Below are positions 1,496 to 64,000 of a stretch of DNA of 64,000 nt, in pieces (the first letter of the stretch is position 1; each line of letters opens with the position of its first letter). Location: the NCBI GenBank assembly GCA_965222225.1, contig CBDCTK010000002.1, positions 2,240,001 to 2,304,000 on the forward strand. The letters run 5' to 3'. A program made the translations under genes and the position numbers. The DNA is from Candidatus Poribacteria bacterium (lineage in GTDB: Bacteria; Poribacteria; WGA-4E; JAJDTR01). The notes under the pieces are model-generated. The model was given only the letters and a program-made list of their open reading frames with translations. It made no database searches and had not been told where the DNA came from.

Positions 1496-1532
1496 GATTA
1501 AGCGACCGAAAAGGGAGTGCGATAGAGATCCC
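1496..1532 (+). repeat. 37-nt GATC-capped element, followed by the right half of the MITE (1533-1600)
   Basis: GATTAAGCGACCGAAAAGGGAGTGCGATAGAGATCCC then CTTGCCCCGCATTAGTAAG..., matching 16583-16650. Confidence 0.85.
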
Positions 1533-1750
1533 CTTGCCCCGCATTAGTAAGATTTTATTAACGCTATTAATGCACTTCAAATATAGAGAAATGGTATTAC
1601 AAACCGATGGTTGGGGAAAACCATAGATTCTGAGAACTCCTAATTTCCGCCATTATTTCCTTCGCCTCCCCCGCTAGAAACGCCTTTGCAGCTAGTGCAC
1701 TAAGTCCCCGTCATACCGTATTTTATACGGTTTACCCGGCTCCTCTGTTT

Positions 1751-2569
1751 TCAAGCGTCTTCAGACTGTGCACCATTTTCTCGATTAACGATTTCTTTGG
1801 TATGACGAACGGGCGCCATCTCCAAAAATTCCCGCGTCTCAGGCGATAATTTGTCAAACATCTGTTGCGGATAATCCTCCGTGAGTTGGGAACCAACGAC
1901 ATGCAGTGGTCCGCAGCCCAAAAGAAACGCGATTCGATCTCGGTCGGTCGAATTCCACTTCATCGTCCCATGAGTAAGCTCCTCATTGACAATCACAACG
2001 TCGCCGGCTCTTGGCGAAACGTTGACCACACCCTGAGTGAGGCAGCCATCGGAGAAAAATTCTCCGTTATTGAACAGACTTCTGTGCGATCCCGGCACCA
2101 GGACTAACCCCCCGTCACCGGGCAAAACGTCGGTAAAATACCAGAAGACATTAAAGTAATCACACTGAATTTTCCCTTCGACGCAGTAGGTATGTCCCCC
2201 TTGCCAGTAGGGTTCGGGCCGAGGTCCCAGTTTGCCTGCGACAGGTTCCCTCAGGGAGGGCAGTCTTAAAGGCGCATCGTTATGTGTAGTGATTTTCAGG
2301 TGGGTGCTCGGCAACATACGCGGCTTGCGCACGGTCAGTTCTGTGATAATCGGCCAGATTGACAGATGCAGAGCCAGGTTCTCAAGCGCCTTGTCAAAGA
2401 CTAAAAACGGCAGGAAGTCTCCGGGACCAAACGGAATTTTGTCGGCTGACGCATCAATGTAGCGACAGACAGGATCTTGAGCGTTTGCCAACTCGTCGGA
2501 AGTGAGAGCGTTCTTGATGTGCAGGTATCCTGTCGTATCAAATAGATACCGCTGTAGTGGGGTCATCAT
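1751..2569 (-). CDS. PhyH-family (phytanoyl-CoA dioxygenase-like) protein
   Basis: YLFDTTGYLHIKNAL N-terminus; DGGLVLVPGSH; AGDVVIVNEELTHG. Confidence 0.8.
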   Translation of the reverse strand: MMTPLQRYLFDTTGYLHIKNALTSDELANAQDPVCRYIDASADKIPFGPGDFLPFLVFDKALENLALHLSIWPIITELTVRKPRMLPSTHLKITTHNDAPLRLPSLREPVAGKLGPRPEPYWQGGHTYCVEGKIQCDYFNVFWYFTDVLPGDGGLVLVPGSHRSLFNNGEFFSDGCLTQGVVNVSPRAGDVVIVNEELTHGTMKWNSTDRDRIAFLLGCGPLHVVGSQLTEDYPQQMFDKLSPETREFLEMAPVRHTKEIVNRENGAQSEDA

Positions 2570-2993
2570 TGAAATAGTGCCTCACTGCGTTCAACCGTAC
2601 CTGCTGACGCAGAGCCGCAAGTCTACGTAGGATTGGCTAGCGAACAGGTGATTTTGCGCTAGGAAAAAAGCCGGTTGAGTTCAACGATGCACTGAAAAAT
2701 CGCAATCACCCCAACCACCGGCAGATTATAGCAAAGCATCAAGAAATCCTCAAGCGAAAAGGCAGTCAAGCAAGTCTCAGTATTGACGTTTGTCCTCTGC
2801 AACGACTGGGAAGCGTAGAGTTAGAAGGATGGGAGATTCTCTTCGACCCTACACGCGAGATGCAAAGTGTATTCTCTTAACTTCCTTTAGTATGTTATAC
2901 TTAGTTTTCAAGTTGCCGGTAGGTTTGGACAATCTCCCGCGTGAACGCGAAAGATTGCAATTCTGTTCCGCGGCGCCAATTTAGGAAAGAAAA

Positions 2994-4808: not shown

Positions 4809-4996
4809 ATACATAACCCAAATCAAGCCAATCATTGCTCGCGGTGGATTGACAATTCCACTGCACATCTGCGGGCGCGGCTTGGATACGTATATCCATG
4901 CCTCGCAGATTTTCTTCTTCAAAGCAGTAATCTCTGCGCCGACTTATGAATTGCCCGATCACACGGACGCCATAACCAAAAAATGGGGAGATTAAC

Positions 4997-7831
4997 ATGG
5001 AATCAGAACATAAACCGGCTGAAACATTATATTTAATAGACGGACACGCCCAGATTTTTCGCGCTTACTACGCCATCCGCGGAGGACTGCGTAGCCCGGC
5101 GGGGGAACCGACCCACGCCGTCTTTGGCTTTACGGGCATGTTGATCAAGCTCCTCTCCGAAATTCGTCCTCAGTACGTCGTGGCGGCACTAGATATGCCG
5201 GGACCGACGTTTCGTGACGAGCTTTACGACGAGTACAAAGGAACACGGGAAGCCACCCCTGACGATCTAATCTCGCAAATTCCTCGCATCTGTCAGGTGC
5301 TTGAACACTTCGCTATTCCGATAATTGGCGTAGAGGGATTGGAAGCGGACGACGTCATCGCCACGATTACGCAACGAATACTTGATGATCCTTCATGCGA
5401 AGACTTGTACATCCGCATCATATCCAAGGACAAAGACCTTGAGCAACTTCTCGGCGATCGCGTTACAATGTTCGACATCCATACGGATAAAACAATCGAC
5501 GTGGAGTCGCTTTGGACAGACAAAGGCATCACTCCGGCACAAGTTATTGACATGCTGGTGCTGATGGGCGATACAGTCGACAACGTGCCCGGCGTCGAAG
5601 GCATCGGTCCCAAGACCGCCACCAAACTGATACAAGACTTTGAATCAATCGACGGCATCTTTGCCAATATCGACAAAATTAAAGGCAAACGTCGGGAAAA
5701 CCTAGAAAAGGCGCAGGCTCATCTGCCCCTGTCACGCACCCTTGTAACACTGAAGCGCGACGCCGATTTCCCGTTTTCACTTGAGCAAGCGCGGGTCAAC
5801 CCGCTTGAACTTCAGAAGATCCTGCCGCTGTTTCAAGAGTTGGGCTTTAATCGCTTTCAGCTTGAGGTTGAACAACTTGCCGGCGGCGCCGAAGTCACCT
5901 CCGCTCCGAAGACTGGTGAACGTGAGACAAGAGAGGAGCGCGTCGCCGTTTTGGAGGAGCAAACGACAGCGATTCTGGAAAAAGGCGAATACGAAACCGC
6001 GGACGGGGGCGATTATACAGCCATCACGACACCCGATCAGTTGGAGGCGCTCGCTGCAACCCTCCGTGCACAATCAATTATCAGCGTTGATACCGAAACA
6101 ACTAGCTTGGCGCGGGATGCGGCGCTTTGTGGACTGAGTTTCGCATGGAAACCCGGACACGGCGTTTACGTCCCCGTTCGCTCGCCAAACCCCAGCGACC
6201 ACCTTGACGCCGAAACCGCCCTAACCGTCTTGGGCCCAATCCTGTCGGACGGCAATCTGCACAAGTGCGGACACAATCTGAAGTTTGACGCGCAGGTGTT
6301 GTTGCGAAACGGCGTAAAACTGCGCGGTGTGGTGTTCGACTCAATGCTTGCCAGTCTTCTGATTGATCCGGAGCAGCCGGGCCACCGGCTTGATACCGTC
6401 GCTTTGCTGCATCTGAACTACAAGATGATTCCGCTCTCCGACCTGATAGGAGAGGTAGATAAAGAGACCAGCATCGACACGGTTCCGTTGGCACAGGTCA
6501 CGAGCTACGCCTCGGAGGACACCGACATCGTATTGCGTCTCTATCATCACCTCCTACCAAAGCTGGAGGAAATGGGCATGACCGCTCTCGTGCGGGACAT
6601 CGAATCGCCTCTCGCGCCCATCATCGCGGAGATCGAGTTCAACGGCATCGTCTGCGACCCGGAGGAGTTGAAGCGTCAAGGCGACGTCATTAACGAGCGT
6701 ATCGACGCTCTCAGAAGCGAAATATGGGAGCTTGCCGGTGGCGAATTTCATCTTGAATCAACACACCAACTCGGGGATGTGCTTTTCAACAAACTCGGTT
6801 TTGAGCCCGTTAAAAAGACGAAGAGCGGCAGATGGGGAACGGATGTGACGGTGTTGGAACGGTTAACCGGGCAGGAGGATGCAAATGATCCGCCCACGGC
6901 AGTGCCGCGCCTCATTATCGAGTATCGTCAACTCACCAAATTGGCGAGCACTTACCTTGGGCAATTACGGAGCGCCGTGAACAAGGACACCGGGCGCATT
7001 CATGCAACATTTCACCAACTAACCACCGCGACAGGACGGTTGGCATCGCATGGGCCAAACCTTCAGAATATCCCGGTTCGGACGAAGGTGGGCCGCCAAA
7101 TTCGCAAAGCATTCAAAGCGCCTGAAGGCCGCAAGTTGATTTGCGCGGACTATTCGCAAATCGAACTCCGTTTGCTCGCACATTTCAGCGAGGATCCCAA
7201 TTTAATCGAGGTCTTTGAGCAGGGACTGGATATCCACACCTCCGTGGCTTCTCAGGTCTATGGAGTCCCGATTGAAGCCGTGACCCGCGAGCAACGTGAC
7301 CAAGCGAAGACCATTAACTTCGGAATCATCTACGGGATTTCTGCATTCGGACTTTCTCGGCGGATTAAGGGCATGGACATGAGAACCGCGACGTCGTTAA
7401 TCAACGACTACAAGGAACGTTTCCCGGGAATCGATGCCTTCTTGAACCGGTGTATCCAACACGCTTTGGAACACGGTTATGTTGCCACGCTGACCGGACG
7501 GCGACGCGCAATTCCGGAGATTCACTCGCCGAACCGAAACAGGCAGAGTCAAGGCGAGCGGTTGGCATTCAACACCGTAGTTCAAGGGAGCGCGGCAGAC
7601 TTAATCAAAGCGGCAATGGTCAACGTGCAGAACCGGATTGAACGAGACAGTTTGCCGCTGAAACTGTTGCTCCAAATCCATGACGAGTTGGTCTACGAAA
7701 CCCCCGATTCGCTCGCCGAGGAACACGCAGCCATCGTGCGTAACGAGATGGAACATGCGATGGATTTGAGAGTCCCTCTCCTCACCGATGTGGGGATTGG
7801 GGACAACTGGATGTCTGCCAAGTCGGACTAA
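4997..7831 (+). CDS. polA: DNA polymerase I
   Basis: 5'-3' exonuclease (LIDGH, EADDVIAT, GDTVDNVPGV), 3'-5' exonuclease DTETT, polymerase motifs DYSQIELR, KTINFGIIYG, QIHDELV. Confidence 0.97.
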   Translation: MESEHKPAETLYLIDGHAQIFRAYYAIRGGLRSPAGEPTHAVFGFTGMLIKLLSEIRPQYVVAALDMPGPTFRDELYDEYKGTREATPDDLISQIPRICQVLEHFAIPIIGVEGLEADDVIATITQRILDDPSCEDLYIRIISKDKDLEQLLGDRVTMFDIHTDKTIDVESLWTDKGITPAQVIDMLVLMGDTVDNVPGVEGIGPKTATKLIQDFESIDGIFANIDKIKGKRRENLEKAQAHLPLSRTLVTLKRDADFPFSLEQARVNPLELQKILPLFQELGFNRFQLEVEQLAGGAEVTSAPKTGERETREERVAVLEEQTTAILEKGEYETADGGDYTAITTPDQLEALAATLRAQSIISVDTETTSLARDAALCGLSFAWKPGHGVYVPVRSPNPSDHLDAETALTVLGPILSDGNLHKCGHNLKFDAQVLLRNGVKLRGVVFDSMLASLLIDPEQPGHRLDTVALLHLNYKMIPLSDLIGEVDKETSIDTVPLAQVTSYASEDTDIVLRLYHHLLPKLEEMGMTALVRDIESPLAPIIAEIEFNGIVCDPEELKRQGDVINERIDALRSEIWELAGGEFHLESTHQLGDVLFNKLGFEPVKKTKSGRWGTDVTVLERLTGQEDANDPPTAVPRLIIEYRQLTKLASTYLGQLRSAVNKDTGRIHATFHQLTTATGRLASHGPNLQNIPVRTKVGRQIRKAFKAPEGRKLICADYSQIELRLLAHFSEDPNLIEVFEQGLDIHTSVASQVYGVPIEAVTREQRDQAKTINFGIIYGISAFGLSRRIKGMDMRTATSLINDYKERFPGIDAFLNRCIQHALEHGYVATLTGRRRAIPEIHSPNRNRQSQGERLAFNTVVQGSAADLIKAAMVNVQNRIERDSLPLKLLLQIHDELVYETPDSLAEEHAAIVRNEMEHAMDLRVPLLTDVGIGDNWMSAKSD

Positions 7832-7843
7832 GAGTTCTCACTT

Positions 7844-7957
7844 GTAGGGTGCGCACTGCGCACCAGCATTTGAAAGCGCCAGCGTGCAATCAAGCGACCG
7901 AATGGTGAGCGATCAACTGAGATTAAACGAGCGAACAACGAGTGCGATAGAGAATCC
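7844..7957 (+). repeat. REP followed by stacked 37-nt elements (two 5' fragments and a full unit at 7921-7957)
   Basis: AATCAAGCGACCGAATGGTGAGC / GATCAACTGA / GATTAAACGAGCGAACAACGAGTGCGATAGAGAATCC. Confidence 0.75.
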
Positions 7958-8103
7958 TCGGCGATCGTCAAATCACCGATTTCCCCTCTTACTGCGCACC
8001 CCAGATGATGGTGATAAAAAACTCAGTTCCAAGGCGAATGGTGCTTATACAAATAGATTTGCAGCAAGTTCGAGGTTCTGTTGACATTTCATTGTCACCA
8101 GAT

Positions 8104-8161
8104 GGGCGAGGGGAAGATCCCTATCGCATTCGCTATTCGCTCACCTGATCCTCGCCCTTAC
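8104..8161 (-). repeat. 37-nt element (8114-8150) inside a GTAAGGGCGAG...CCTCGCCC hairpin
   Basis: Reverse complement reads GTAAGGGCGAG-GATCAGGTGAGCGAATAGCGAATGCGATAGGGATCTT-CCCCTCGCCC. Confidence 0.8.
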
Positions 8162-12100: not shown

Positions 12101-13021
12101 TTCGACCGGCAGCAGCCCTCGACTCTCGGCGTAGAGGATAAACAGGAGGCGGTACAACAGAATCAGAGAGTTGGCATGAATCTCGTCGAGCGGTGAATTG
12201 GCTCTGTCAAAACCGTTGCGGGGGAAATCGAGAAAACCGCCGATGAGCAAGCGTAAGGCATCGTAGACACGATTCTTCAGGTCATCGGAAACGGCGATGG
12301 TGTGTTGCCGACTCTCCGTCAATACGAGGTCAAGGAACGATGTCCCGCTCGCATCGGGGGTGAAAGCGTCGCGCCGAAAGAGACAGTAGAAATAGCGAAA
12401 GCTATCCAAGTCTCGGTTTTCGCTGAGAAGCGCGGCGAGGTCTACCTCATAGAAACTGTCAAGCCTATAACTAGTCTGACGATGGTAAAGCCGCCACTGC
12501 CTGCCGTTGGTCAAGACGCCCCACAGTTTATCCGCGCTCCGGAGATAGAAGTCTATCTGGTAGTTTGGATTTTGGTTGTTGAACGGGTCGCCTCGGCCCT
12601 CCGCCTTCCGATCCAGATTGCGAGACCACGCCTTGGCGTCGCCGACAGCGAGGGCGGTATTGAAGAACCGGTTGGTGTTGATGTGAGGCTGCGCCGCCTC
12701 GTGTGCATCCTCCGAGCCGAAGAAGGCATAATCGGGGCGTTTGGCTCCCTGCGGCGTTTGGAGAGTCGGTTGCACCTCGAAAACATGCCCTAACTGTTCT
12801 AGCACCGGCTGGATGAGTTCGTGTTCAATTTGTGCCTCATTGCGGCTCGGCGCATTCGGGGCGACAGCGTCGAAAACGTCCTTGATTTCGGCGTAATCCG
12901 ATTTAATGTCGGGTGTATCTAACCACTGCGGCTGTTCAACGATGAGGGAGTCGAGGTAGTAGTCCGAAAAGAGCGAGTGATTTTTAAAGGCGTCGGGTAT
13001 TTTTTTGGGGTTGATAGACAT
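9197..13021 (-). CDS. Type IIG (Eco57I-like) fused restriction endonuclease / N6-adenine methyltransferase with TRD
   Basis: N-terminal PD...DAK nuclease and LTNGRQWRLY; GSYYTP, DPATGSGHFL, NPPY; TaqI-C-like TRD (EKILIKRI...LLNSR). Confidence 0.9.
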   Translation of the reverse strand: MSINPKKIPDAFKNHSLFSDYYLDSLIVEQPQWLDTPDIKSDYAEIKDVFDAVAPNAPSRNEAQIEHELIQPVLEQLGHVFEVQPTLQTPQGAKRPDYAFFGSEDAHEAAQPHINTNRFFNTALAVGDAKAWSRNLDRKAEGRGDPFNNQNPNYQIDFYLRSADKLWGVLTNGRQWRLYHRQTSYRLDSFYEVDLAALLSENRDLDSFRYFYCLFRRDAFTPDASGTSFLDLVLTESRQHTIAVSDDLKNRVYDALRLLIGGFLDFPRNGFDRANSPLDEIHANSLILLYRLLFILYAESRGLLPVENPDYAARYSLAALAETTHETLDRGNLIIPTISDYWARLRGLFTLINDGWNDLIPQYNGGLFNPEHHPFLEKYELGNDALAQVIELLTRTEESKRITYRDLDVRHLGNIYEGLLEYQPQIADQDLVIASKKRREVVTPKSSSNQKVAYREGEVYLLTDKGERKATGSYYTPDYIVRYIVENSLAPLCKDKSVKEILSLKVLDPATGSGHFLVGVVDYLAEELITNPDAPFMTETASEETELAYWRRRVVESCVYGVDLNPMAVELAKLSLWLHTVAKGEPLSFLDHHIRYGNSLIGAKIENLSHLPQLKKSRRRTSETQTEFAMTFPFIDTVAIAIGHYLLIEETESRTADQIHAKEHELDIAQTMLRFHKGVANLWTSVYFGNDVSRAVYHQALNALRSKDTDTLENLLCYRQAQEIATERRFFHWEIEFPEVFRDKYGREKDNPGFDAVVGNPPYVSVTNIEPDFRNYLLRQFTTATGRFDLYITFAEQALCLLRKSGMFGFIQPIKFAIYANGKTLRDFLLGQTQIEQFVDVSQCRVFPDPTTYPCLPIIKKGTPSAEHKILVVRVPPDAPELISDRNSELVITARIPQSRFNLTPENVFCLRLSDGLYHLIKRFDELSSSLNDMFDIEQCIRIGSQAKRLALVLDEGHYASAPEYVKMACRKMLDGENIEQYTIAWEGEWLHYLPNELYNAKSLEVLETEKILIKRIAPSLTAVPDLGLNESYFYPLNTIYALIPNEHFNLTLLYVTSLLNSRCLDWYYKLLFEAIAIRGGYIEYREYLKYLPIRRINFTTPPDERDRQLEKAKTLYEFCLNKGSTDCVLGFVKHHLAANPERADIVHDLLAFLAEQMLEMNKAKGEEIRDFHRWLERELEVKIDKLQNKTAIQSYFNLSSDQLLGILKKNHRLIRVDLSSRNFQESLEREFNSSLVKLNPLLTRIEHTGTLIDQIVYQLYGLTDEEIEIVVGS

Positions 13022-13174
13022 TGATGTAGCCGGTCTTTGCTATAGACTCTTCGCCTTAGACGGACAGCAGTTGTTTGGTTCGTGATAACAATCCGCGATC
13101 GTCAAATCACCGAGAAGTTCTCCACCACGAAACCTTGGGGGTTCAATCGCGTAAGCCCTAACGCAGATTCTGGG

Positions 13175-13360
13175 TTAGTCCTTGTCGTTAAACCGGCTAA
13201 AGACAGCGATCAAAGGGAAACCCGCACAGATTATCAGTGCCCCGAGGGATACCACGCTTGCGTTCGCGCTGAGTAGACCTGATGCGATACCGAGGAGAAA
13301 AGCGGAAATAACGATAGTAATAGTGATATTCCAACGCATCTTGAACGTCTCCCATAGCAT
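13175..13360 (-). CDS. Small 2-TM hypothetical protein
   Basis: 61 aa with two hydrophobic stretches; no clear RBS. Confidence 0.35.
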   Translation of the reverse strand: MLWETFKMRWNITITIVISAFLLGIASGLLSANASVVSLGALIICAGFPLIAVFSRFNDKD

Positions 13361-13565
13361 ATCAATGTAGTATTTGTAGGAGTGAGAAAGTTAACGCTCA
13401 ACCGCGTTGCATCGTTTCATTTCCCATGGTTCAACTCTCTTGTTTGGGCTACGAGGCGTGGATTAGGATGCACCTTATCCGGTTTGTCGGAAATAGATCG
13501 CCCGTATTGACCCGCAGGGGCTTTAATAAGGAAAGAAACTCAGTTTCGGTGCGAGACGATATAGG

Positions 13566-13594
13566 TTGAATTTCGGCGGTGAAGGTGTTATAGT
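13566..13594 (+). promoter_or_regulatory. Sigma70-type promoter
   Basis: TTGAAT-17 nt-TATAGT with extended TGn, upstream of the ORF at 13631. Confidence 0.55.
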
Positions 13595-13630
13595 GTATTT
13601 ACCCTTGAGCCGAAAGGGGAAACTGGGACG

Positions 13631-13972: not shown

Positions 13973-13999
13973 TAGTTGAATGGGCGCTTTATGCTACGG

Positions 14000-14128
14000 G
14001 TCGCGATTCGGAGAAGATTCCTATCGATCAAAGAAGCGGATAGATCAACTGACCGGATAGGGAGGGCGATAGAGATCCCAATGCGATAGAAAATCCTACT
14101 CGCTATTCGCTCGCTTGATCGCTCCTAC
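14000..14128. repeat. REP (GTAGGAGCGAT..CTCCGAATCGCGAC, minus strand) containing three nested 37-nt elements
   Basis: Outer unit on minus (14014-14025 + 14098-14120), middle on plus (14026-14042 + 14080-14097), inner on plus (14043-14079). Confidence 0.85.
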
Positions 14129-14169
14129 GGAGAGGGTATTCCAAATTCAGATTATTGGAGGATGCGTCA

Positions 14170-15092: not shown

Positions 15093-15172
15093 GGGATCTC
15101 TATTGCACTAACGCTTCTATCGCATTCGCTACTCGCTCATTTGATTCTATTCAGTCGTTCAACCCAACCTAC
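15093..15172 (-). repeat. Nested 37-nt elements in a GTAGGTTGGGTT-type REP
   Basis: Reverse complement: GTAGGTTG-GGTTGAACGACTGAATAG-AATCAAATGAGCGAGTAGCGAATGCGATAGAAGCGTT-AGTGCAATAGAGATCCC. Confidence 0.7.
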
Positions 15173-16472: not shown

Positions 16473-16650
16473 TTTGTACCATTTCGCTTGAATACTATTG
16501 CCTACGATGTTTATCAATTATACTGTTATGAGATGACCGATACTAACCATTAACCCGTACGCCAAACCCGTTGGCGGGGCATCTTGCCCCGCATTAGTAA
16601 GACTTGATTAACGCTAATAATGCACTTCAAATATAGAGAAATGGCATTAC
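16473..16650 (+). mobile_element. MITE-like element with about 13-bp terminal inverted repeats and an uninterrupted central hairpin GCGGGGCATCTTGCCCCGC
   Basis: Left end TTTGTACCATTTCGCTTGAA, right end GAAATGGCATTAC; related copies at 18514-18731, 63850->64000, 1533-1600 (half) and 50013-50062 (end). Confidence 0.65.
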
Positions 16651-18513: not shown

Positions 18514-18731
18514 CTAATCCCATTTCGCTTGAACAACATTGCGTATGATGTCTAATTATAACATTCTCTTCCTATGTAGGCGGCGGCCAAACGAGTGAAT
18601 AGCCAGTGCGATAGAGGTCCCCTTGCCCCACCGACTTTGCGTAGCGACAAGGCATCTTACTCCGCTCCACACATGTTTCTTTACTTGATTCACGCAATCA
18701 ATGCATTATCATTTTGGAGAAATGGCATTAG
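18514..18731 (+). mobile_element. MITE-like element with a 37-nt element (18585-18621) in its central hairpin
   Basis: TIRs CTAATCCCATTTC and GAAATGGCATTAG match at 12/13; no target duplication evident. Confidence 0.65.
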
Positions 18732-22031: not shown

Positions 22032-22052
22032 ATATCCTCCACTTTTCCCGGA

Positions 22053-25651: not shown

Positions 25652-25706
25652 GATCAACCGACCGAATAGGATCAAATGAGCGAATAGCGAATGCGATAGA
25701 GATCCC
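25652..25706 (+). repeat. 37-nt element inserted after nt 18 of another copy
   Basis: GATCAACCGACCGAATAG + GATCAAATGAGCGAATAGCGAATGCGATAGAGATCCC. Confidence 0.85.
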
Positions 25707-30846: not shown

Positions 30847-30945
30847 GTAGGAGGATCAAGCGAGCGATTAGCGAGTGCGATAGAGATCCCAAGACGATAG
30901 TAGATCCCACAGTAACTGCGATAGAGATTCCTTCCGATTCCTGAC
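30847..30945 (+). repeat. REP with a 37-nt element (30854-30890) and two extra 3'-end fragments
   Basis: GTAGGAG-unit-..GATAGTAGATCCC-..GCGATAGAGATTCC-TTCCGATTCCTGAC; same host REP as 59962-60035. Confidence 0.8.
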
Positions 30946-36369: not shown

Positions 36370-36480
36370 CATCAAGCGCGTGAATAACAAAGGGATTCTC
36401 TATCGCCCTAGGACTTCTATCGCACTGGGATTTCTACCGTCCTCGCTACTCACTCCGTTGATCTATTCGCTCGTTTGATC
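36370..36480 (-). repeat. Nested cluster of 37-nt elements
   Basis: Full unit 36427-36463 sits after nt 17 of another unit; an extra 3' fragment and an opposite-strand 5' fragment are also present. Confidence 0.8.
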
Positions 36481-38665: not shown

Positions 38666-38810
38666 GTAGGGTGGGCACCGCCCACCATCTCTTGTAGGGT
38701 GCGATAAAGAGAATGAATAATGAGAGCGATAGCGATCTTACCAGCCTTTGAAAGCACTAGCGCGATCAAGGGAGATCAAACGAATGAACAGCGAGTGGGA
38801 AAGAAATCTC
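38666..38810 (+). repeat. REP cluster with degenerate 37-nt elements (38703-38739 and 38764-38810)
   Basis: GTAGGGTGC-unit-ACCAGCCTTTG versus the uninterrupted GTAGGGTGCGCACTGCGCACCAGCCTTTG at 1452. Confidence 0.65.
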
Positions 38811-38833: not shown

Positions 38834-40803
38834 TCATGGATAGAATTGGTAGGTCTCCACATTCAGCACGATGCTCAGGATACTCCAGATACTGCCCATG
38901 AGAAAGTCGCCCAAGACAAGCCCCAAGAAAAACGGGACCGCGCGGCGGTAACTTCGTATGCCGCCGTTTTTGAGGATGAGCCACTTTGCCACCGTGCACA
39001 CGATGAGCGGCACCAAGAGATCTCCCGGCAACTCTCCGCCGCCAGCTATCAAAAATCCCAGCGGGTGTAAAGGCATCCAAAAGACTCTGGAGCGCAAATA
39101 GGCGAGAAGCATCATCGCCGAGAAACCCGCACCCATGAACGTTACGCCCAGCCAGTCGGTGTTCGTGGGATAGTAGATCCAATCCTTCAACCACCCGTAC
39201 CACCGTCTTCCGTGCCCCAGTGCCCAGGGCCCGAAATAGCCCGAAGCCGCGCCATGATTATAGTACATGTGGAGTTGAATCCAGAAGGAGACAAGCACGC
39301 CAACGCCGGTGGCAATGAGAATCGCGGCAAACATCTTTCGATGAGAGAGATTGGCTTGATCCGCGATTTTGAATCCTTCTAATTGGTGAGGCATCTGCTG
39401 CGGGCGGTACTCGCTGTTGAAAAAGCACACGGTCAGCGATGTCAGGTTCTGGGGTCCCAGCCGTCGAGTGCCCAGCCATTGGCTGAGCATCGCGCGCGGT
39501 GCGTACCCGTAACAGGCGAACACCCCCGCCTCCGCGCGAAGCCGGGTCATTACGGTTGGCGCAATCAGGAAGAGCAGCCCGAACGTGGAAGCCACCCAGA
39601 ACGTCATACCCGCCCGTCGGAGCAGGATAGTCAGCACGATAAGCCCCACAACCAGCCCCCACACCGCGGCGCGATACGGAAGCGGCTCCTCCGAATCATC
39701 AACATCGATTCGCCAGCCCAACGCGCGCTTTACCACACGTATGAAGTGCCCCTTCCCGGTCCAAAAAACGAAAACGCAAAGCCCCAAGAAGCCGCCGAGA
39801 ATCTGCTCACGATGGAAAGGGAATCGCGGCAAAGCATCCCACCCCATAATGTCGCCCAGCGTAAGTTGAACCCGGTACAAGCCGCAAAAGAAAGTGGTGG
39901 AAAGAAGCATATCCAGAGGCATCAGGAATAGAATTCCGACCGCGTAGGGGTAAAGCGAGAGACGAATCAAATCACTGTCATCCGCGAAGAAACTCAAAGG
40001 ACCTTCGGTGACGGTGTAGTATGTACGTTTGACCGGGACAAATGGAACCTGCGGGAAGTGCGTATGCAGCCCGTTAAGCAGACCGATGCCCGCGGCGATG
40101 CCGAGACCTAACCACATCCCCCTATTTTGGAAAAACCCGCCTTTGGGTTTCGTCATTTCCAACGCGAGTTGGGCGATTGGGTAGGTTAACCGTTCGTGCT
40201 CCGTCCATTGGCGCCGCAGGATGGTGTTCAGGCACAGGAAATTGAACGCCAAAACCAGAAAAACCAACAACCACGCGAGCACTACCGGAGCCCACACCCT
40301 CAGATGGTGCTCCAGATAGAGGGTGGACTCACCCTCGTAGAAATCGCGCAAAGCCAGTTCGTCCGAGACGGTGAGCCATCGGGGGATATGCCGGATAAAC
40401 AGTTCCTGGAACTCATTTTCGGGCGTGGCAAACCAGAAGGCGTATCCCAAGATCGACAGTATCGCTTGCAGAATATCCCCGGCGGACATCGTTGTCGTAA
40501 TGCTCAACATCACGTAAAGCATCAAGAGCTCGCCGTGTCGAAGCGCGATGCTCGGGAGGAGTAGGCGAATCAAGGAATTGATTATCATCACCGCCGTCAA
40601 GATGAAGATGACGTTGGACAGCGGCACTATCCAAGTGGGAAAGGTATAACGCACCAGTTCCATCTGCAGCAGAAAATAGCAGTTGACGGGAACCAGGATT
40701 AGCGTGATGAGTAGTAGCCGCGGCGTAAGACCGGGGTTCTTCTGTTGTGGGATCTCTATCGCCCTCCCTATTCGGCCGGTTGATGGTTGAGATTATCGGA
40801 CAT
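38834..40803 (-). pseudogene. DUF6785/DUF6784-type (OPT-like) polytopic membrane protein; 5' end disrupted by a 37-nt element
   Basis: LRRQWTEHERLTYPIAQL, RLRAEAG, WMPLHPLG, PFFLGLVLGD motifs. The frame extends upstream of 40663 (QQKNPGLTPRLLLITLILVPVNCYFLLQ) up to the insert. Confidence 0.75.
40749..40785 (-). repeat. 37-nt element inside a coding sequence
   Basis: Reverse complement CATCAACCGGCCGAATAGGGAGGGCGATAGAGATCCC. Confidence 0.85.
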
Positions 40804-41122
40804 ATCTTTCAAAAACAGTGTCCAGTGGAGAGTCAAAAGTGTTTCAACTCGCCGCTGACCACTACTTTTCCGACAAGATTTCCTGGAGTAGGAGCGATCT
40901 CCCGGTCGCGACATCCTGTCGCAAGCAAAATTTGCCTCGGCAGAAGACGAGAAATAATTCGCGCTACTACACACGAATTGTGCAAGTTCCAAATGTATTA
41001 TTCTTGGTTGAATTGACTATAAAAGCCTTTCAACCTTCACTAACCACACTTTTGCGGCAGAATCTCCTTGAGAGAGTAAAACGTGAATAACAAAGGGACA
41101 AGGATCGGTGGGCAGTATGGAG

Positions 41123-41352
41123 GGGATTTCTATGGCAATTCTATCACATTCATTGTCCGTTCGCTTAATCCTTCGCGATTCGCTCAACTGATCGGTGCAA
41201 AGAGTATATTCAACCACCAAATCCAAGACACTCTTTGCTTTGCAGAGGTGTTCGTAGGGATTTGTCCAATCCTAGCACGTCTGTACGTTGTGATGAAGGG
41301 GTTGCATAACAACGAAGAATCTCTATCGCAGTCGATATTTGCTCCCTTGATG
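41123..41352 (-). repeat. Degenerate 37-nt elements (nested at 41123-41193; single at 41316-41352)
   Basis: Reverse complements GATCAGTTGAGCGAATCGCGAAG-GATTAAGCGAACGG... and CATCAAGGGAGCAAATATCGACTGCGATAGAGATTCT. Confidence 0.65.
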
Positions 41353-50486: not shown

Positions 50487-50536
50487 GGGATCTCTATCAG
50501 GACTTGCTATCGCCCTCCTTATTTGGTCGGTTGATC
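50487..50536 (-). repeat. 37-nt element plus extra 3'-end fragment
   Basis: Reverse complement GATCAACCGACCAAATAAGGAGGGCGATAGCAAGTCCT-GATAGAGATCCC. Confidence 0.75.
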
Positions 50537-50654: not shown

Positions 50655-50714
50655 GGTGGGCAGGGGATCTATATCGCACTCGCTATCCGCTCGTTTGATC
50701 GGTGCGCACCCTAC
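50655..50714 (-). repeat. 37-nt element (50664-50700) in the loop of a GTAGGGTG REP
   Basis: Reverse complement GTAGGGTGCGCACC-GATCAAACGAGCGGATAGCGAGTGCGATATAGATCCC-CTGCCCACC. Confidence 0.88.
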
Positions 50715-53630: not shown

Positions 53631-54879
53631 CGGAATTAGTAGCTTGTAGCTTTTAGACTGACGACAAACATAAAACTTGGTACCCTGTCGTAAATCTTTT
53701 CGTCACACGTAGATGTCCATAGTGACTATTCTTCTCGTAGGAGTTTGCTATGGACATTTTGAATCTTATGAAAGAGTTTCCAAATCAAGAATCTTGTCTC
53801 AGATTTATAGAGGAAAAACGTTGGAAGGACGGTGTTTGCTGTATCCACTGTGGCAGTGAAAAAGTTGGACGCAAGAACAAAAACGACATTACTACTGGTT
53901 GGAATTGCTACGATTGTGAATCTAGCTTTTCGGCTACAGCAGGAACCATCTTCCATGGTACCAAGATACCTCTCCAGAAATGGTTTTTGGCTATCTCAAT
54001 TCTTTCCAATGCCAAGAAAAGCATATCGAGTTGTCAGCTTGCTCGTGACTTGGACATGAATCAAAAGTCCGCTTGGTATATGGCAATGCGCCTCCGTGAG
54101 AAAATGAGTGATAGTGATGAATTGCTGAAAGGGATAGTTGAAGCGGACGAAACCTATGTCGGCGGCAAACCCAGAGCAAAATCTAAGAGAGGTAGAGGCA
54201 CAAATAAATCTCCCGTCATCGGCGTAGTCGAGAGAGGCGGTCGGGTGGTTGCTAAATTCATGAAGGTTCTATCTGGTGAAAATATCAGAGAATTCATCCT
54301 TAGCAATGTCTCACCCGATGAGTCTATTCTTATGACTGATGAATTTCGCTCTTACAATAGTCTGGACGAAGATATCGAAAGACATGTTATCCATCACCAA
54401 GAGAGATATGTTTCTGAGGACGGCGTAACTCACACCAACACCATCGAGTCGTTTTGGGCTTGTGTCAAGAGGTCATTCTACGGAACGCATCATCACTACA
54501 GCAAGAAGTGGCTGCCACTGTATATCATGGAGTCTTGCTGGAAATATAATCGCAGAAAAGATGATGAGATTTTCATAAGATTTTTTGATGAATGCTTCAC
54601 CTGAGCCACATGAATTGTTTGGCTATCGGTATATTCTGTCAACGACAACATCATGGTGTGCTGAAAATCCCATAGTGTTGGAAATTAAAATCCCGCAGAT
54701 AACCCGCAATGCTCCCGCGAGCATGTACAAACGCTTGGTCAACATGATATGCCTCCATTTCTCTCTTATAGAGATGTATTTTAGTGTGAATCAAGATTCC
54801 GAACACTGTCTAAAGTTATTGTACATTAAGAAAAGAAAAGCAAGCAAATCAACCAAAAAGCAGTTAACTACTAAGTCCC
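53631..54879 (+). mobile_element. IS1595-family insertion sequence, copy 2 (1249 bp)
   Basis: Same TIRs as copy 1; 8-bp TSD ATCTTTAA at 53623-53630 and 54880-54887. Confidence 0.95.
53750..54604 (+). CDS. IS1595-family DDE transposase (protein identical to copy 1)
   Basis: Identical 284-aa translation in the ORF track. Confidence 0.95.
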   Translation: MDILNLMKEFPNQESCLRFIEEKRWKDGVCCIHCGSEKVGRKNKNDITTGWNCYDCESSFSATAGTIFHGTKIPLQKWFLAISILSNAKKSISSCQLARDLDMNQKSAWYMAMRLREKMSDSDELLKGIVEADETYVGGKPRAKSKRGRGTNKSPVIGVVERGGRVVAKFMKVLSGENIREFILSNVSPDESILMTDEFRSYNSLDEDIERHVIHHQERYVSEDGVTHTNTIESFWACVKRSFYGTHHHYSKKWLPLYIMESCWKYNRRKDDEIFIRFFDECFT

Positions 54880-54955
54880 ATCTTTAATGTTTCTAAGCCA
54901 TGGTCTGCGAGCCATCCTTTAAGGTCCATGCTTTTTCTCCTTTCGGTGAGCTTGA

Positions 54956-55516
54956 CTAGTGGGTTATATTACATATTTTACACTTGGTGTTATACTTCAT
55001 CATGTCTTGTGAATTCTTGATAAGTTCCGCCCTTGATGTCCTCGCATCAAAGGCGTCATCAATCCACTCTCCTAGTTGGCTAGATTTAGATGGATATGAG
55101 CGATAACGGGTATAGCAATTCTCTTCTCCTTCTTCCCAATTCGCTTTAAATCGTGGGGGAAGATGCGCACTGTTTCCTTGGCTGGGAAGTAGGATTCCAA
55201 TAAGACCATTCGGTAAGGTTGCCCCTTGAGTCAACGAACTCTTGATTTCCCAATCTACAAATCGCCGACTATGGGTGCAGCTACCTATCAGGACTATAGT
55301 GACTGTTGTGTCTTGCAGGTATTTCTTCCTGATTTGCCCCATAACATAGTCTGTGTTTGTGCTCTCAATAAAATCATCGTTGTCATTTGCCCCAAGCACG
55401 AACGGAGTGAATACCCGCGCTTGGTTGCCAAAGCAGTCAATAAAATCATCAACTTCAGTCTTATCCCCTTTATAATGAGAAATGAAAACCTTGCGACGCG
55501 TTCCATTGTATGGCAT
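54956..55516 (-). CDS. ThsB-like TIR domain protein (MTH538/DUF1863 type)
   Basis: RKVFISH, IRKKYLQDTTVTIVLIG, RRFVDWEIKSS, NGLIGI. Confidence 0.88.
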   Translation of the reverse strand: MPYNGTRRKVFISHYKGDKTEVDDFIDCFGNQARVFTPFVLGANDNDDFIESTNTDYVMGQIRKKYLQDTTVTIVLIGSCTHSRRFVDWEIKSSLTQGATLPNGLIGILLPSQGNSAHLPPRFKANWEEGEENCYTRYRSYPSKSSQLGEWIDDAFDARTSRAELIKNSQDMMKYNTKCKICNITH

Positions 55517-59961: not shown

Positions 59962-60035
59962 GTACGAGGATCAAGCGACCGGATAGGGAGCGCGATAGAG
60001 ATCCACTCCAATAGAGATTCCTTCCGATTCCCGAC
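59962..60035 (+). repeat. REP with a 37-nt element (59969-60005) and a 3' fragment
   Basis: GTACGAG-GATCAAGCGACCGGATAGGGAGCGCGATAGAGATCCA-..ATAGAGATTCC-TTCCGATTCCCGAC. Confidence 0.8.
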
Positions 60036-61198: not shown

Positions 61199-61330
61199 TT
61201 GAGATAATTCAATCGTATTTTTAGGACCTTGGTCTTGATGATTGTACAATCTCTAACAGCGGATTTGGCTGTCTTTCTTTATCAGATACGTCAGCTAGAT
61301 TGTGGATTGTTTTGAAAGGAGCTAGATTCC

Positions 61331-63820
61331 ATGAAAGATTATCAACCTCTCGATTTGTCTGCGTTGTGTAACGCCGGTCTGGATATACTGAACGATGGCG
61401 CGAGTGTGCCAATCGGAGAGCAGACGCTTCGCGGCTTGCCGTTCATCGTCGGCTCAGCCGATCCGGAGCGCGGCGGGGTCTGTCTCATCGCTTTCGATGC
61501 CAAGCGCGGGAATGTGACTATCCCTATCAATCAATCCGCCCGTCGCGTGATTATCGCGCATACCTTGCTTGAGTCGGAACTATCGGAAGGAGGGGCGTTG
61601 GCAAAGCCGATTGCAGACTACGTCTTCCGGATATCGTGCGGCGATGAGGTTCGCGTACCCATCCGTGAGAGATTTGAGATTGCCGTTCCCTCCTATGGCG
61701 GTTTGCCGTTCCGTGCACTTCCGGACCAACTGGATTCACTCTACCCGCGCAATGAGGGAAAATGGAGAGACGCCGGACACCGACAGACCGAGGTAACGCA
61801 AGGCAGACCGCGCGGTTTCTTTCTTTGGTCATGGGAAAATCCACATCCCGATACCCCCATCAAATCGCTGGAGGTCATCCCGACCGGAACACGTTTTGTC
61901 ATCGGAGCAATCACACTCGGACATGTAGACGAACATCCCTTTGTACGGCAGGGCCGTCGCGAAACGCGCATTATCCTAACCAACCCGGAGGACGCGGAAA
62001 AACCGTTCGACCTTGATGTGGAGGTAGATCGAGGGCTCGCAACCTATGTCCACGCCTTGCCGGAGGCTTCTGCGGATGATTTTGTCGACGATTCCTTCAA
62101 AGGCTGGGGCGAGGCACAGAACTCGAAATCTAGCCCCGCCTACACCGAGATTGCGGCGCTCCCCTCTGCGACGGTGACGGTTAAGCAAGGGGAGGAGGAG
62201 GTCGGTAAGGTTAAATGGAGGGATGTGCAAGAAAAAGGTTCCGTCGAGATACCGCGGATGCGCGTGGAACTGCTTGACCGCGGCAGAAATTGGGTGCACG
62301 TCACTGTTCTTGATGAAGAAACCGACAAGCCCGTGCCGTGCCGAGTTCATTTCCGATCGCCCGAAGGCATCGCTTATCAGCCGCACGGTCACCACAATCA
62401 GGTCAACTCGAATATGGAGACTTGGCACATTGATGTAGGCGGCGATGTACGCATGGGACAGATTACTTACGCTTATATAGACGGCACCTGCCAAGGCTGG
62501 CTGCCGCGCGGCGAGGTCATCGTCGATGTCGCACGCGGGTTTGAATACGAGCCGCTTCGGACGCGAGTAAAGGTTGAACCGGGGCAGCGCGAACTCACAC
62601 TGCGCCTCAAACGCTGGATCAACATGAACGAACAGCAATGGTTTAGCGGGGATTCGCATGTTCACTTCCTCTCCACGCAGGGCAGCCATACAGAGTCGCA
62701 GGGCGAAGACCTGAACGTGGTCAACTTGCTGCAATCGCAGTGGGGAAGCCTCTTCACAAACACCGAGGAATTTACGGGCAAGGCGAGCGTCCTGCAGGAC
62801 GGCAATAACATTGTCTATATCACGCAGGAGAACCGCCAACACTTCCTCGGACATTTAATCCTTTTGGGGCTTAAGAAACCGGTCATGCCGTGGTGTAGTG
62901 ATGGCGCCGGAGAAGCCGAACCCGGCGGAACGTTGGAAGTCACTATGAGTGACTGGGCGGACCAGTGCCATGCGCAAGGCGGTACCGTGATTATCCCGCA
63001 TCACCCGAATCCGAACGGCGAACCGGCGGCGCTAATTGCCACCGGCAGAGCGGACGGCGTCGAAATGCTGCGCCACGATCCGTTCAATCACCTTGAGTAC
63101 TACCGTTACCTAAACTGTGGCTATCGTTTACCGTTAGTTGGCGGCACAGACAAGATGTCGAGCGATGTACCGGTAGGCATTTATCGCACGTACGCTCGCC
63201 TCTCTGAAGACGAGGAATTTAATTACGACAACTGGTGCAAGAACGTCGCCCGCGGACGCACGTTCCACAGCGGCGGTCCCATCATCAACCTGACCGTAGA
63301 AGGCAATCAGATAGGCGACACGGTACAGATGTCCGGTCCCGGCACAGTTGAAGTCGAGGCATGGGCGGAGAGCATCTTCCCGATTCACACGCTTGAGCTC
63401 GTCCAAGCCGGGCGCGTGGTGGCATCAACAGAAGACGCGAAGGGCGCCCGACGATTGGAATTGAAGGCGAAGGTGAAGGCGCCTGGACATACGTGGGTGG
63501 CGGCAAGGTGCGGCGGTCCCAACTATACGAGCGTCCAGCACCATGACGGTTGGCAGCGCGGCATATTTGCGCACACCTCCCCGGTCTATATCGCTTGCGG
63601 CGGCGAATGGTGGATGTTCGACAAAGACGCGGCGCAATATATGCTTACGCTCATTGACGGCTGTCTGACCTACATCCGCGAGACCGCCCCGCTACACGAG
63701 CAAGGCACGGCGACACACCATCACGGCGAGCCGGATCACGCTGCCTACCTCGAACGTCCCTTTATCGAAGCGCGCGAGGCAATCCATCAACGCATGCACA
63801 AGCTGGGTATGCCTCACTAA
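61331..63820 (+). CDS. CehA/McbA-family PHP-like metallohydrolase
   Basis: RGFEY, SGDSHVH, LGHL, PHHP, GGTD, AHTSPVYI. Confidence 0.85.
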   Translation: MKDYQPLDLSALCNAGLDILNDGASVPIGEQTLRGLPFIVGSADPERGGVCLIAFDAKRGNVTIPINQSARRVIIAHTLLESELSEGGALAKPIADYVFRISCGDEVRVPIRERFEIAVPSYGGLPFRALPDQLDSLYPRNEGKWRDAGHRQTEVTQGRPRGFFLWSWENPHPDTPIKSLEVIPTGTRFVIGAITLGHVDEHPFVRQGRRETRIILTNPEDAEKPFDLDVEVDRGLATYVHALPEASADDFVDDSFKGWGEAQNSKSSPAYTEIAALPSATVTVKQGEEEVGKVKWRDVQEKGSVEIPRMRVELLDRGRNWVHVTVLDEETDKPVPCRVHFRSPEGIAYQPHGHHNQVNSNMETWHIDVGGDVRMGQITYAYIDGTCQGWLPRGEVIVDVARGFEYEPLRTRVKVEPGQRELTLRLKRWINMNEQQWFSGDSHVHFLSTQGSHTESQGEDLNVVNLLQSQWGSLFTNTEEFTGKASVLQDGNNIVYITQENRQHFLGHLILLGLKKPVMPWCSDGAGEAEPGGTLEVTMSDWADQCHAQGGTVIIPHHPNPNGEPAALIATGRADGVEMLRHDPFNHLEYYRYLNCGYRLPLVGGTDKMSSDVPVGIYRTYARLSEDEEFNYDNWCKNVARGRTFHSGGPIINLTVEGNQIGDTVQMSGPGTVEVEAWAESIFPIHTLELVQAGRVVASTEDAKGARRLELKAKVKAPGHTWVAARCGGPNYTSVQHHDGWQRGIFAHTSPVYIACGGEWWMFDKDAAQYMLTLIDGCLTYIRETAPLHEQGTATHHHGEPDHAAYLERPFIEAREAIHQRMHKLGMPH

Positions 63821-63849
63821 TTGCCTGAGAGTACTGAGGTGAATCATAA

Positions 63850-64000
63850 GTTATACCATTTCGATTGATTAACAGCGCATATGATTTTTAATCATATCAT
63901 TCTCTTTCTCCGTGGGCGGGGATCAAGCGAGCGAATAGCGAGTGCGATAGAGATCCCCTTGCCCCGCATCGGTAAGATTTGATTAACGCTATTAATGCAC
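63850..64000 (+). mobile_element. MITE-like element (cut by the window edge) with a consensus 37-nt element at 63921-63957
   Basis: Left end GTTATACCATTTC; GCGGG-unit-CTTGCCCCGC; the downstream arm matches 1533-1575 and 16583-16625. Confidence 0.75.

Follow-up and report, generated by a model that had tools for sequence, protein, structure and literature searches.

How can DNA repeats of only tens of bases move? This question has been standing since the small dispersed repeats (SDRs) of 2008, and it is raised again by a stretch of 64,000 nt from a metagenome-assembled genome (MAG) of Candidatus Poribacteria (contig CBDCTK010000002.1, positions 2,240,001 to 2,304,000), which is called the window in the following. 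Poribacteria are a phylum of sponge symbionts. Scattered over the window are copies of a 37-nt element that interrupt unrelated repeats, among them repetitive extragenic palindromes (REPs) and a miniature inverted-repeat transposable element (MITE), as well as other copies of the element itself. We conclude that the element is very probably mobile and was inserted at its present sites; in its behaviour it resembles the smallest mobile elements known. For a more detailed reading, i.e. a family of very small, non-autonomous mobile elements that act as single-stranded DNA and are served by a protein in trans, perhaps an HUH enzyme of the Y1 type, we estimate a probability of about one half.

The window genome (G000) comprises 5.70 Mb in 2 contigs. 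From 10 window copies a profile was built and run with nhmmer on the window and the whole genome. Two genera are compared throughout, the genus of the window genome (g1, 10 genomes) and a genus of another family (g4, 4 genomes).

Copies, sequence and fold of the element

The original prediction had placed the 37-mer and its variants at about 18 loci on both strands, and profile matches were indeed obtained at or beside 18 of its 19 listed positions. Position 9019 gave no profile match; read by eye, it holds a decayed composite inside a GTAGGAGC REP. In the window, 24 matches were found at E<=10, of which 15 also pass E<=1e-2, corresponding to 15 clear copies and 9 fragments. The exact 37-mer, with up to three mismatches allowed, matches four times (25670+, 30854+, 50664-, 63921+), whereas none of 100 dinucleotide-preserving shuffles gave such a match. 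Moreover, a repeat finder separately grouped 8-copy families on both strands of the window. The whole genome contains 712 matches at E<=1e-3 and 884 at E<=1e-2, i.e. approximately 700-900 copies. Among the 568 near-full-length matches, 514 measure 37 nt, 44 measure 38 nt and 10 have other lengths, so that the claim of an almost constant length of 37 nt holds genome-wide. The copies do not represent an assembly artefact, because independent short-read contigs of other runs agree with the window without any difference over two element-bearing stretches, 7289-7987 and 12431-14112, the latter covered by a contig of run X15 that reaches into the triple nest described below. These contigs were taken from Logan, where contigs break at repeats and the listed joints are cross-mappings between copies; the public runs containing the window stretch include sponge metagenomes.

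The consensus reads GATCAA-NN-GA-NY-GRATA-RN-GA-NN-GCGATAG, followed by a tail of 7-8 nt (AGATCCC in the main form). The first 30 nt form a conserved core, whereas the last 7 positions are more variable and make up a lineage-specific tail: one subfamily ends in the 8-nt tail NAAATCC[C/T], and in g4 the tail is T[C/T]TT[C/T]NC behind an unchanged core. The edges are sharp, with 1.3-2.0 bits at conserved positions versus at most 0.47 bits one base outside, and terminal symmetry is limited to GATC at positions 1-4 and 32-35. With its 37 nt the element has no coding capacity.

The core can fold into 2+2 base pairs around a tandem G.A/A.G step (invariant G9-A10 and G20-A21) with the loop GRATA. All four pairs covary among the 514 copies of 37 nt, 436 of which are distinct. 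Pair 11:19 occurs as GC (261), CG (111) and AT (104), pair 8:22 as CG (289), GC (88) and TA (84), pair 7:23 as AT (120), GC (105) and CG (93), and pair 12:18 as CG (280) and TA (158); to these are added the wobbles GT (17), TG (18), GT (171) and TG (58), respectively. Since G:T or T:G wobbles (264) far exceed A:C or C:A mismatches (23), only the GATCAA..GATCCC strand is selected to pair. The same fold is found in 150 distinct copies from other Poribacteria MAGs, where 96.5% of the cells pair compared to 66.2% in shuffles, and where 187 double-sided changes stand against 36.5 in shuffles, both values being reached by none of 500 shuffles; slid controls on this set pair in 23.5-61.2% of the cells. 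Furthermore, the pair types are restricted: every copy has a pyrimidine at position 12 and a purine at position 18, and T hardly ever occurs at positions 7 and 11.

Wobbles of the G:U type tolerated on one strand only would also be expected of an RNA route, in which a small structured RNA would be copied by reverse transcription into targets that are nicked or single-stranded, and tandem G.A steps are common motifs of RNA. However, reverse transcriptase was rejected as a driver, as it does not co-occur with the element: RVT_1 (E<=1e-5) is present in only 4 of the 10 g1 genomes, in G000 with a weak score of 27.5 bits, and in 2 of the 4 g4 genomes. Because the MAGs are approximately 93% complete, a missing reverse transcriptase is no proof of its absence. 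The orientation of the copies is also nearly independent of the genes (see below), and searching the 64-kb window against Rfam at the gathering score gave no match. We consider such an RNA route very improbable.

Evidence for insertion

The comparison of filled and empty sites speaks for insertion. A paralogue with contiguous flanks, i.e. an empty site, exists in G000 for 109 of the 514 copies. Target duplication was not seen in any of the filled/empty pairs, and in 42 clean pairs the element replaces a few nucleotides of the target: 2 in 16 pairs, 3 in 17, 4 in 7, 5 in 1 and 1 in 1. Insertion without duplication and with a loss of 2-4 nt, as originally claimed, is thereby borne out. The replaced stretch begins with G in 40 of these 42 pairs, or in 30 of 32 non-redundant contexts; examples are GTAGGGTGC-GCA-CTGCGCACC, GTAGGAGC-GA-TCTCC and GGCGGG-GCAT-CTTGCCCC, with the replaced bases between the hyphens. 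Reading the window directly, all five named host hairpins were found as described, and uninterrupted forms of three of the hosts, REP1, REP2 and GGCGGGGCATCTTGCCCCGC, were located in the same window (Table 1).

Filled and empty sites were likewise found between species, when orthologous loci of g1 species with approximately 85-89% gene identity were compared. G006 carries a copy in the loop of a REP3 where G005 reads GTTGAAC-GGCA-CCAACC. In another spacer, the same MITE contains three nested copies in G002 versus a single copy in G001, and G000 lacks this MITE altogether, showing an empty site (spacer at 4811-4971) where G001 and G002 carry it.

The nesting of copies points in the same direction. 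Of the 514 copies, 137 directly follow the 5' part of a second, co-oriented copy (in 5 further cases the orientation is opposite), and the 5' part of such a host copy ends at discrete positions (10-12, 17-19 or 23). In split hosts, positions 22 and 23 of the 3' part were compared with their partners in the 5' part, positions 8 and 7; 39 of 48 cells pair, compared to an expectation of 24.6 and to none of 2000 shuffles reaching 39. Because the halves still pair with each other, the two host parts were once one copy. The triple nest in REP2 is an example from the window: its outer, minus-strand copy is split after position 23 and contains a plus-strand copy, which is split after position 17 (14026-14042 and 14080-14097) and encloses the innermost full copy at 14043-14079 (E 1.5e-9).

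Two further loci of G000 show the element in arrays. At one (L169, Table 1), five head-to-tail units of 38 nt, each consisting of the 30-nt core and TCTTGTAG, are followed by a sixth partial unit; they differ in their stem variants, as if each insertion had remade the ..GTAG target for the next one. A rolling-circle origin of such tandem arrays was rejected, since the units differ in their stems. The other one (L168, Table 1) is a CRISPR-Cas locus (clustered regularly interspaced short palindromic repeats) encoding Cas7/DevR (E 2.3e-64) and Cas1 (E 1.2e-69), with a weak Cas5 match below the Pfam cut-off; copies of the element also lie between its cas genes. The 37-nt repeat of its array, GTAGCAACCATTGCCCCGATGAAAAGGGGACTGAAAG, is unlike the element, and a CRISPR-repeat origin of the element was dismissed as there is no resemblance by eye.

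Alternatively, the 37-mer might not be mobile at all, but a binding site or regulatory motif that is selected by the host and spread by duplication of larger repeats and gene conversion. Identical copies do occur in identical larger repeats (of the 24 copies that follow TAGGGTGC, 14 are identical), and the strict constraints on positions 12 and 18 would suit a selected motif. This explanation nevertheless appears most improbable. A given site is occupied by different variants in different members of one host family, copies interrupt copies whose halves still match, and empty and filled alleles exist in orthologous spacers. In the CRISPR array, 8 of the 12 repeat starts are intact and 4 are interrupted by element composites right after ..GATGAAAAG. 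In addition, the fold is too weak for a terminator and gene ends are not preferred.

Insertion sites and orientation

Genes, as defined by a crude procedure based on open reading frames (ORFs), cover 82% of the contig, yet only 107 of 709 copies lie mostly inside them, and the ORFs overlapping those copies are mostly 102-141 aa long and probably spurious. In co-directional spacers, 221 copies are co-oriented with the neighbouring genes and 188 opposed, and approximately 17% of the convergent and of the divergent spacers alike carry a copy. Near-independence from gene orientation and equal use of the spacers argue against a role in the transcript. An intrinsic terminator or stable hairpin was rejected as well, since the folding energies are no better than those of shuffles.

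Many copies reside in other repeats. Among the 514 full copies, 134 have GTAGG (a REP arm) within 17 nt upstream, 109 abut a 5' fragment of another copy, 39 occupy one MITE site (CCCCAGnGnGG) and 232 sit elsewhere, many of the latter still within lesser repeat families. REPs of at least four different families contain the element. GTAGG is found in the left flank of 157 of the 514 copies and CCTAC there in only 18, which means one insertion orientation relative to GTAG-tagged REPs; the distance from GTAGG to the junction peaks at 9 nt (65 copies), 8 nt (23) and 16 nt (20). Perfect flank stems of at least 6 bp surround 26 of the 514 copies, compared to 6.4 expected, hence they are four-fold enriched and still uncommon. 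Hairpins are thus a favoured target, not an obligatory one. The host hairpins that were originally reported are real; they represent a large minority, not the rule. Accordingly, the term structure-targeting, which the original prediction used, applies only in part, and a weak sequence preference, G-[C/G]^G (^ marks the junction), is present throughout: C or G directly precedes the junction in 82% of the copies, and one base further out G is found in 62%.

Orientation is also coupled to replication. In bins of 400 kb, the dominant orientation of the copies flips with the sign of the GC skew, and judged by the local skew the folding strand lies on the C-rich strand in 70% of the copies (p = 2e-26), or in 66% of those without a recognised host. 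Three families of GTAG REPs have their GTAG strand on the C-rich strand in 76%, 64% and 72% of cases, compared to 51% for random GTAGG pentamers. Long genes favour the G-rich strand (56%). If the G-rich strand marks the leading strand, the folding strand would mostly lie on the leading-strand template; this strand assignment rests only on the GC skew and the 56% gene-strand bias. As a further caveat, the skew changes sign at least six times along the 5.6-Mb contig C2 of G000, which suggests many inversions, assembly joins or an unusual replication layout.

Such a bias, together with the association of copies with hairpins and REPs and a junction loss that is small and variable, would be compatible with templated insertion, in which no dedicated enzyme is involved and a replicative or repair polymerase stalls at hairpin-prone DNA, switches to an existing copy as its template and returns some bases later. 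The many composites of a 5' fragment and a full copy could then be an aborted copy followed by a restart. Several features make this improbable. Hundreds of copies have identical edges whatever the flank, while templated insertion would give variable lengths and depend on microhomology; neither copies with variable ends nor junction microhomology that predicts the insertion points were seen. Position 1 is not set by the target, as three copies starting with A have G at the empty site (read by eye). Finally, the covariation with its purine and pyrimidine constraints points to recognition by a protein.

Distribution among genomes

Extension of the search from the window to the whole genome and related MAGs revealed hundreds of copies. 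Among 41 relatives, all 10 g1 genomes contain 309-840 pattern matches and all 4 g4 genomes 115-134; another 2 matches lie on tiny contigs of one g2 genome, nothing was matched in the remaining 26, and the reversed pattern matches in none of the 41. Phylum-wide, 19 of 176 Poribacteria genomes give matches, 14 of them with more than 100 copies and 5 with 1-15, leaving 157 with none. The same stem variants recur in g1 and g4. In g4, which lacks the main REP host of g1, the copies sit in REP3 hairpins.

In a scan of a genome collection, all matches among those listed belong to Candidatus Poribacteria MAGs. Neither annotated plasmid and phage records (blastn with 11-base words) nor the viral contigs of IMG/VR (pattern scan) gave any match, hence there is no sign of a viral or plasmid vector in the collections scanned. 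The clean distribution over 14, 157 and 5 genomes of one phylum makes a comparative identification of the enzyme feasible. With up to 840 pattern matches per genome, a structure on one strand, a defined scar and a strand bias, the Poribacteria family offers a much better handle on the movement of such short repeats.

Search for an enzyme and possible mechanism

No Y1 gene is flanked specifically by the element, and neither Y1 nor reverse transcriptase genes track it. Y1_Tnp (HUH) genes are present in 10/10 g1 and 4/4 g4 genomes. In g4, a 180-aa RAYT lies in element-dense regions, with 9 copies in 14 kb and 13 copies in 10 kb, and the genes beside the g4 clusters are ordinary metabolic genes plus a RAYT. 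As a driver the 180-aa RAYT was rejected, because it is flanked by its own REP3s and its clade is widespread in element-free genera. The other Y1 genes of G000 were rejected, too, as each lies among a different REP family and is not directly flanked by the element, while several of these REPtron-like genes are flanked by REPs that carry copies. Five Y1 genes of the RAYT/IS200-like type are listed in Table 1; three of them have REPs on their flanks, of another family in each case (GTAGG types, GTAGTAGGC.. and CACAATCTAACAGATTGTG).

As mentioned at the outset, we favour a family of very small, non-autonomous mobile elements. The original prediction of a minimal non-autonomous element is supported in this respect, and the present data do not separate transposition from the writing of a fixed sequence by an enzyme. 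According to the favoured reading, the mobile form would be single-stranded DNA, namely the GATCAA..GATCCC strand. Its hairpin would be recognised by a protein provided in trans, which would cut G-[C/G]^G sites where hairpin-prone single-stranded DNA lies exposed at the replication fork. The likeliest catalyst may be an HUH Y1 enzyme of the RAYT/IS200 type. Such enzymes are ranked first because they work on hairpins of single-stranded DNA, accompany the element wherever it occurs, and have REP substrates with the same strand bias; HUH-driven movement can nevertheless be proposed only tentatively, with less than even confidence.

It must be mentioned that a number of observations weigh against this reading. 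No transposition event or intermediate was observed. Y1_Tnp genes also occur in element-free genera (g6 7/7, g3 8/10), and no enzyme tracks the element. The REP3-associated RAYT clade is found in 55 of the 176 genomes, though in only 2 of the 4 g4 genomes, and G000 keeps only a C-terminal fragment of this clade. The variable loss of 2-4 nt is not predicted by known HUH Y1 transposition, which is precise in IS608, and the bias of the folding strand is apparently the reverse of the one published for IS608, as given in the accessible part of PMC6006769. Some composites were multiplied as larger units, so that hitch-hiking adds to the copy number. The 107 composites made of a 5' fragment and a full copy should, after a simple insertion, have a host remainder, yet it is present in only 46 of them. 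The minimum free energy of the DNA fold is -1.6 to -2.9 kcal/mol, no better than in shuffles. As the fold covaries in spite of this weak predicted energy, we infer that the mini-hairpin would be read or stabilised by a protein.

Some of these points would be better explained by a dedicated enzyme of a kind so far unconnected with such elements, such as a nuclease-ligase, a recombinase or a topoisomerase-like enzyme, which would cut the target strand at two nearby points and exchange the segment in between for the element. A loss of 2-4 nt that begins with G fits two cuts better than one. In the 61 of 107 composites that lack a host remainder in a motif test, the full copy seems to have replaced the 3' part of the resident copy, and in examples inspected by eye it abuts the right arm of the host. 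Furthermore, no Y1 clade follows the element, and a high copy number in only two genera among 176 genomes is what a rare accessory gene would produce. However, no candidate gene was found, and the neighbours of the g4 clusters are the metabolic genes and the RAYT mentioned above. Overall, an enzyme of this kind is unlikely.

More generally, the 37-mer could be the substrate of an undescribed reaction on single-stranded DNA that cuts in two places and replaces the segment, with a trans-acting enzyme recognising a mini-hairpin that is stabilised by protein and contains the tandem G.A step. Exposed DNA would be opened 5' of the G, 2-4 nt (in a resident copy, everything up to its 3' end) would be removed, and the element would be ligated in. 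We regard this proposal as rather doubtful. If true, it would define the smallest class of bacterial mobile DNA with a chemistry of its own, able to break CRISPR arrays and horizontally shared between two Poribacteria genera, and it would probably explain the cyanobacterial SDRs too. A model of cutting and ligation at GATC sites was rejected, because the REP2 junction sequences do not fit it.

Whatever the enzyme, the REPs, MITEs and CRISPR repeats of uncultured sponge symbionts are remodelled by what may be called a parasite of parasites, and an enzyme that writes a fixed tag of 37 bases into single-stranded hairpin DNA would have practical interest.

Copies and other features of the window

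The copies, empty hosts and further features are collected in Table 1. The MITE-like repeat of approximately 175-215 nt with a central GGCGGGGCA..TGCCCCGC hairpin has many copies in G000 and is 74-90% identical in G005 and other g1 genomes. Two 100% identical inverted copies of an IS1595-family insertion sequence bracket approximately 15 kb including a segment of low GC content (42.8% at 52-56 kb), in the region of which a Thoeris ThsB-like TIR gene is found; the bracketed stretch may be a composite transposon carrying a defence gene. In addition, the window encodes ankyrin-repeat proteins and PhyH-type dioxygenases. Eukaryote-like repeat proteins are typical of sponge symbionts.

Table 1. Copies of the 37-nt element, empty hosts and other features. 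Positions refer to the window unless a contig of G000 is named; E values are from nhmmer for copies of the element.
Position	Strand	Feature	Evidence or remark
1496..1532	+	Full copy in MITE hairpin ..CCCCAGAGGGG-copy-CTTGCCCCGC	E 1e-9, model 1-37
7889..7910	+	5' fragment (model 2-23), then another fragment, then the full copy at 7921	E 2.7, weak; by eye
7921..7957	+	Full copy, tail AGAATCC	E 2e-7; covered by contigs of other runs
8114..8150	-	Full copy in hairpin GTAAGGGCGAG..CCCCTCGCCC (host 8104-8161)	E 3.5e-8
14013..14120	- (outer)	Triple nest in REP2 GTAGGAGC..TCCGAATCGCGAC (host 14000-14128)	Profile and reading by eye
15093..15145	-	Copy (model 2-31) and 3' fragment behind GTAGGTTGGGTTGAAC (REP3, 15159-15174, minus strand)	E 1.3e-4 and 4.6
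18588..18621	+	Decayed copy (model 4-37) in MITE hairpin GTAGGCGGCGG..CTTGCCCCACC	E 6.4e-4
25652..25706	+	5' fragment (1-18), then full copy 25670-25706; no host remainder after it	Full copy E 2.7e-10
30854..30931	+	Full copy 30854-30890 behind GTAGGAG, then two 3' tail fragments	E 7e-11; fragment 30917-30931 E 3.5
36392..36480	-	Nest: 5' fragment (1-18), degenerate full copy, two 3' remainders	Weak E; by eye
38715..38809	+	Two decayed copies in a composite containing REP1	E 5.4 and 1.3, both weak
40748..40784	-	Full copy, no recognised host repeat	E 6.7e-9
41140..41170	-	Decayed copy (model 1-31) abutting another 5' fragment	E 0.5
41317..41351	-	Copy, model 2-36	E 9.1e-4
50507..50536	-	8-nt-tail variant (core 1-30 and CAAGTCCT), then 3' fragment	E 2.1e-3
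50664..50700	-	Full copy in the centre of REP1 palindrome GTAGGGTGCGCACC-copy-CTGCCCACC (50655-50714)	E 2.8e-10
59969..60004	+	Full copy, then tail fragment	E 2e-9
63921..63957	+	Full copy, identical to the originally given consensus, in MITE hairpin GGGCGGG-copy-CTTGCCCCGC (63916-63967)	0 mismatches; E 1.4e-11
16574..16593		Empty MITE hairpin host GGCGGGGCATCTTGCCCCGC; filled forms lack GCAT	Paired with filled copies
1452..1472	+	Empty REP1 GTAGGGTGCGCACTGCGCACC; more empty REP1 from 7844 and 38666	Sequence read
40888..40902	+	Empty REP2 GTAGGAGCGATCTCC; a second one at 23777-23791 (minus strand)	Sequence read
16473-16650, 18515-18731, 63853-64000, 1533-1600		MITE-like repeat	
37325-38575, 53631-54881		Inverted IS1595-family copies of 1251 nt	DDE_Tnp_IS1595, E 1.2e-36
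54956-55516		Thoeris ThsB-like TIR gene	
17570-18484, 20028-21563		Ankyrin-repeat proteins	
1751-2569, 14155-15006, 15204-16517		PhyH-type dioxygenases	
G000 C2:2702925-2707800		CRISPR-Cas locus (L168:5926-10800)	Outside the window
G000 C2:1578373-1578590		Array of 38-nt units (L169:1374-1591)	
G000 C2:1545609-1545947		RAYT fragment without HUH region	42% identity to g4 RAYT; 20 copies of the element in 20 kb around
G000 C2:3080261-3080740		Y1 gene	
G000 C2:3088889-3089344		Y1 gene	In-frame stop
G000 C2:3727535-3728017		Y1 gene	
G000 C2:3836111-3836929		Y1 gene	
G000 C2:2564289-2564729		Y1 gene	No element within 2 kb, no adjoining repeats seen

Comparison with known systems

According to the accessible part of PMC6006769, REPs are defined by GT[AG]G 0-2 nt 5' of a fully paired stem of 7-20 bp. 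Like REPs, the element is high-copy, intergenic, hairpin-forming and strand-specific, with single-stranded DNA as the presumed substrate; it also shares the replication-strand bias of the GTAG REPs of G000, and Y1 genes are present in every element-rich genome. Unlike REPs, it has GATCAA instead of GT[AG]G 5' of the stem, and its four pairs are split by a G.A/A.G step instead of forming a GC-rich stem of 7-20 bp. Moreover, no cognate Y1 gene is flanked by the element, and Y1_Tnp and the one RAYT clade tested do not co-occur with it. With REPINs it has in common that it is non-autonomous, high-copy and presumably mobilised in trans. Nevertheless, it is not REPIN-like, because neighbours no more than 300 nt apart are in direct orientation in 198 cases versus inverted in 52, with no preferred inverted spacing, and it consists of single 37-mers.

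Fixed insertion points within REP palindromes are shared with IS1397 and with elements of the IS110 family, which are in part named in the reference list of PMC3116915. Those elements are kb-sized, have their own transposase and mostly make target duplications, whereas the element is non-coding and measures 37 nt. IS200/IS605 elements such as IS608 and ISDra2 resemble it in the missing target duplication, the strand-specific hairpin and an orientation coupled to replication. However, elements of the IS608 type encode tnpA and enter precisely on the 3' side of a target of 4-5 nt, none of which is lost, with their active strand on the lagging-strand template (PMC6006769, accessible part), while the element has a weak target preference, loses target bases and apparently reverses the strand bias. 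MITEs have terminal inverted repeats, duplicate their target and usually exceed 100 nt, in contrast to 37 nt, no duplication and the loss of 2-4 nt seen here. CRISPR repeats, which are regularly spaced between unique spacers beside cas genes, differ as well: the element is dispersed, and the real CRISPR repeat of the genome is a different 37-mer that the element interrupts.

The closest analogue among known kinds appears to be the SDRs of Nostocaceae, such as SDR4, SDR5 and SDR6, of Elhai et al. (2008, Genome Res 18:1484), with which the comparison was made by description only. SDRs reportedly measure 21-27 nt, have conserved ends around a compensatory hairpin, and are nested in MITEs and in each other. 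The element, which is dispersed and mostly intergenic, appears similarly short, and it is like them in its nesting in MITEs and copies and in its compensatory hairpin, and insertion differences exist between relatives, here as orthologous filled and empty loci. It is unlike them in its length of 37-38 nt versus the 21-27 nt that are quoted for SDRs, and in its host, Candidatus Poribacteria, which lies outside the lineage of Nostocaceae; a likeness in sequence is not known.

One member, SDR5, has 21 nt, and both its function and mechanism were still unknown as of 2026 according to the accessible part of PMC13756078. It sits precisely between the 3rd and 4th base of GCGATCGC (PMC4390886, accessible part), and such precise placement within a short motif of the host is a further likeness. 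Outside Nostocaceae, SDR-like repeats were not found among HIP1-rich cyanobacteria, as far as the accessible part of PMC5861425 states; the genome studied here is not HIP1-rich, with 117 sites compared to approximately 86 expected. Literature searches on dispersed repeats of Poribacteria found nothing relevant. The statement of the original prediction that the element was not recognised as described is thus true for this family, which is new to the literature searched, and has to be qualified for its kind, which has an analogue in the cyanobacterial SDRs. The element replaces 2-4 nt of its target, in which it differs from the SDRs as described, and its orientation follows GTAG REPs and the GC skew. 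The family can be regarded as a variation on a known but unexplained kind, which it extends by a target scar, a rule of orientation and a strand bias.

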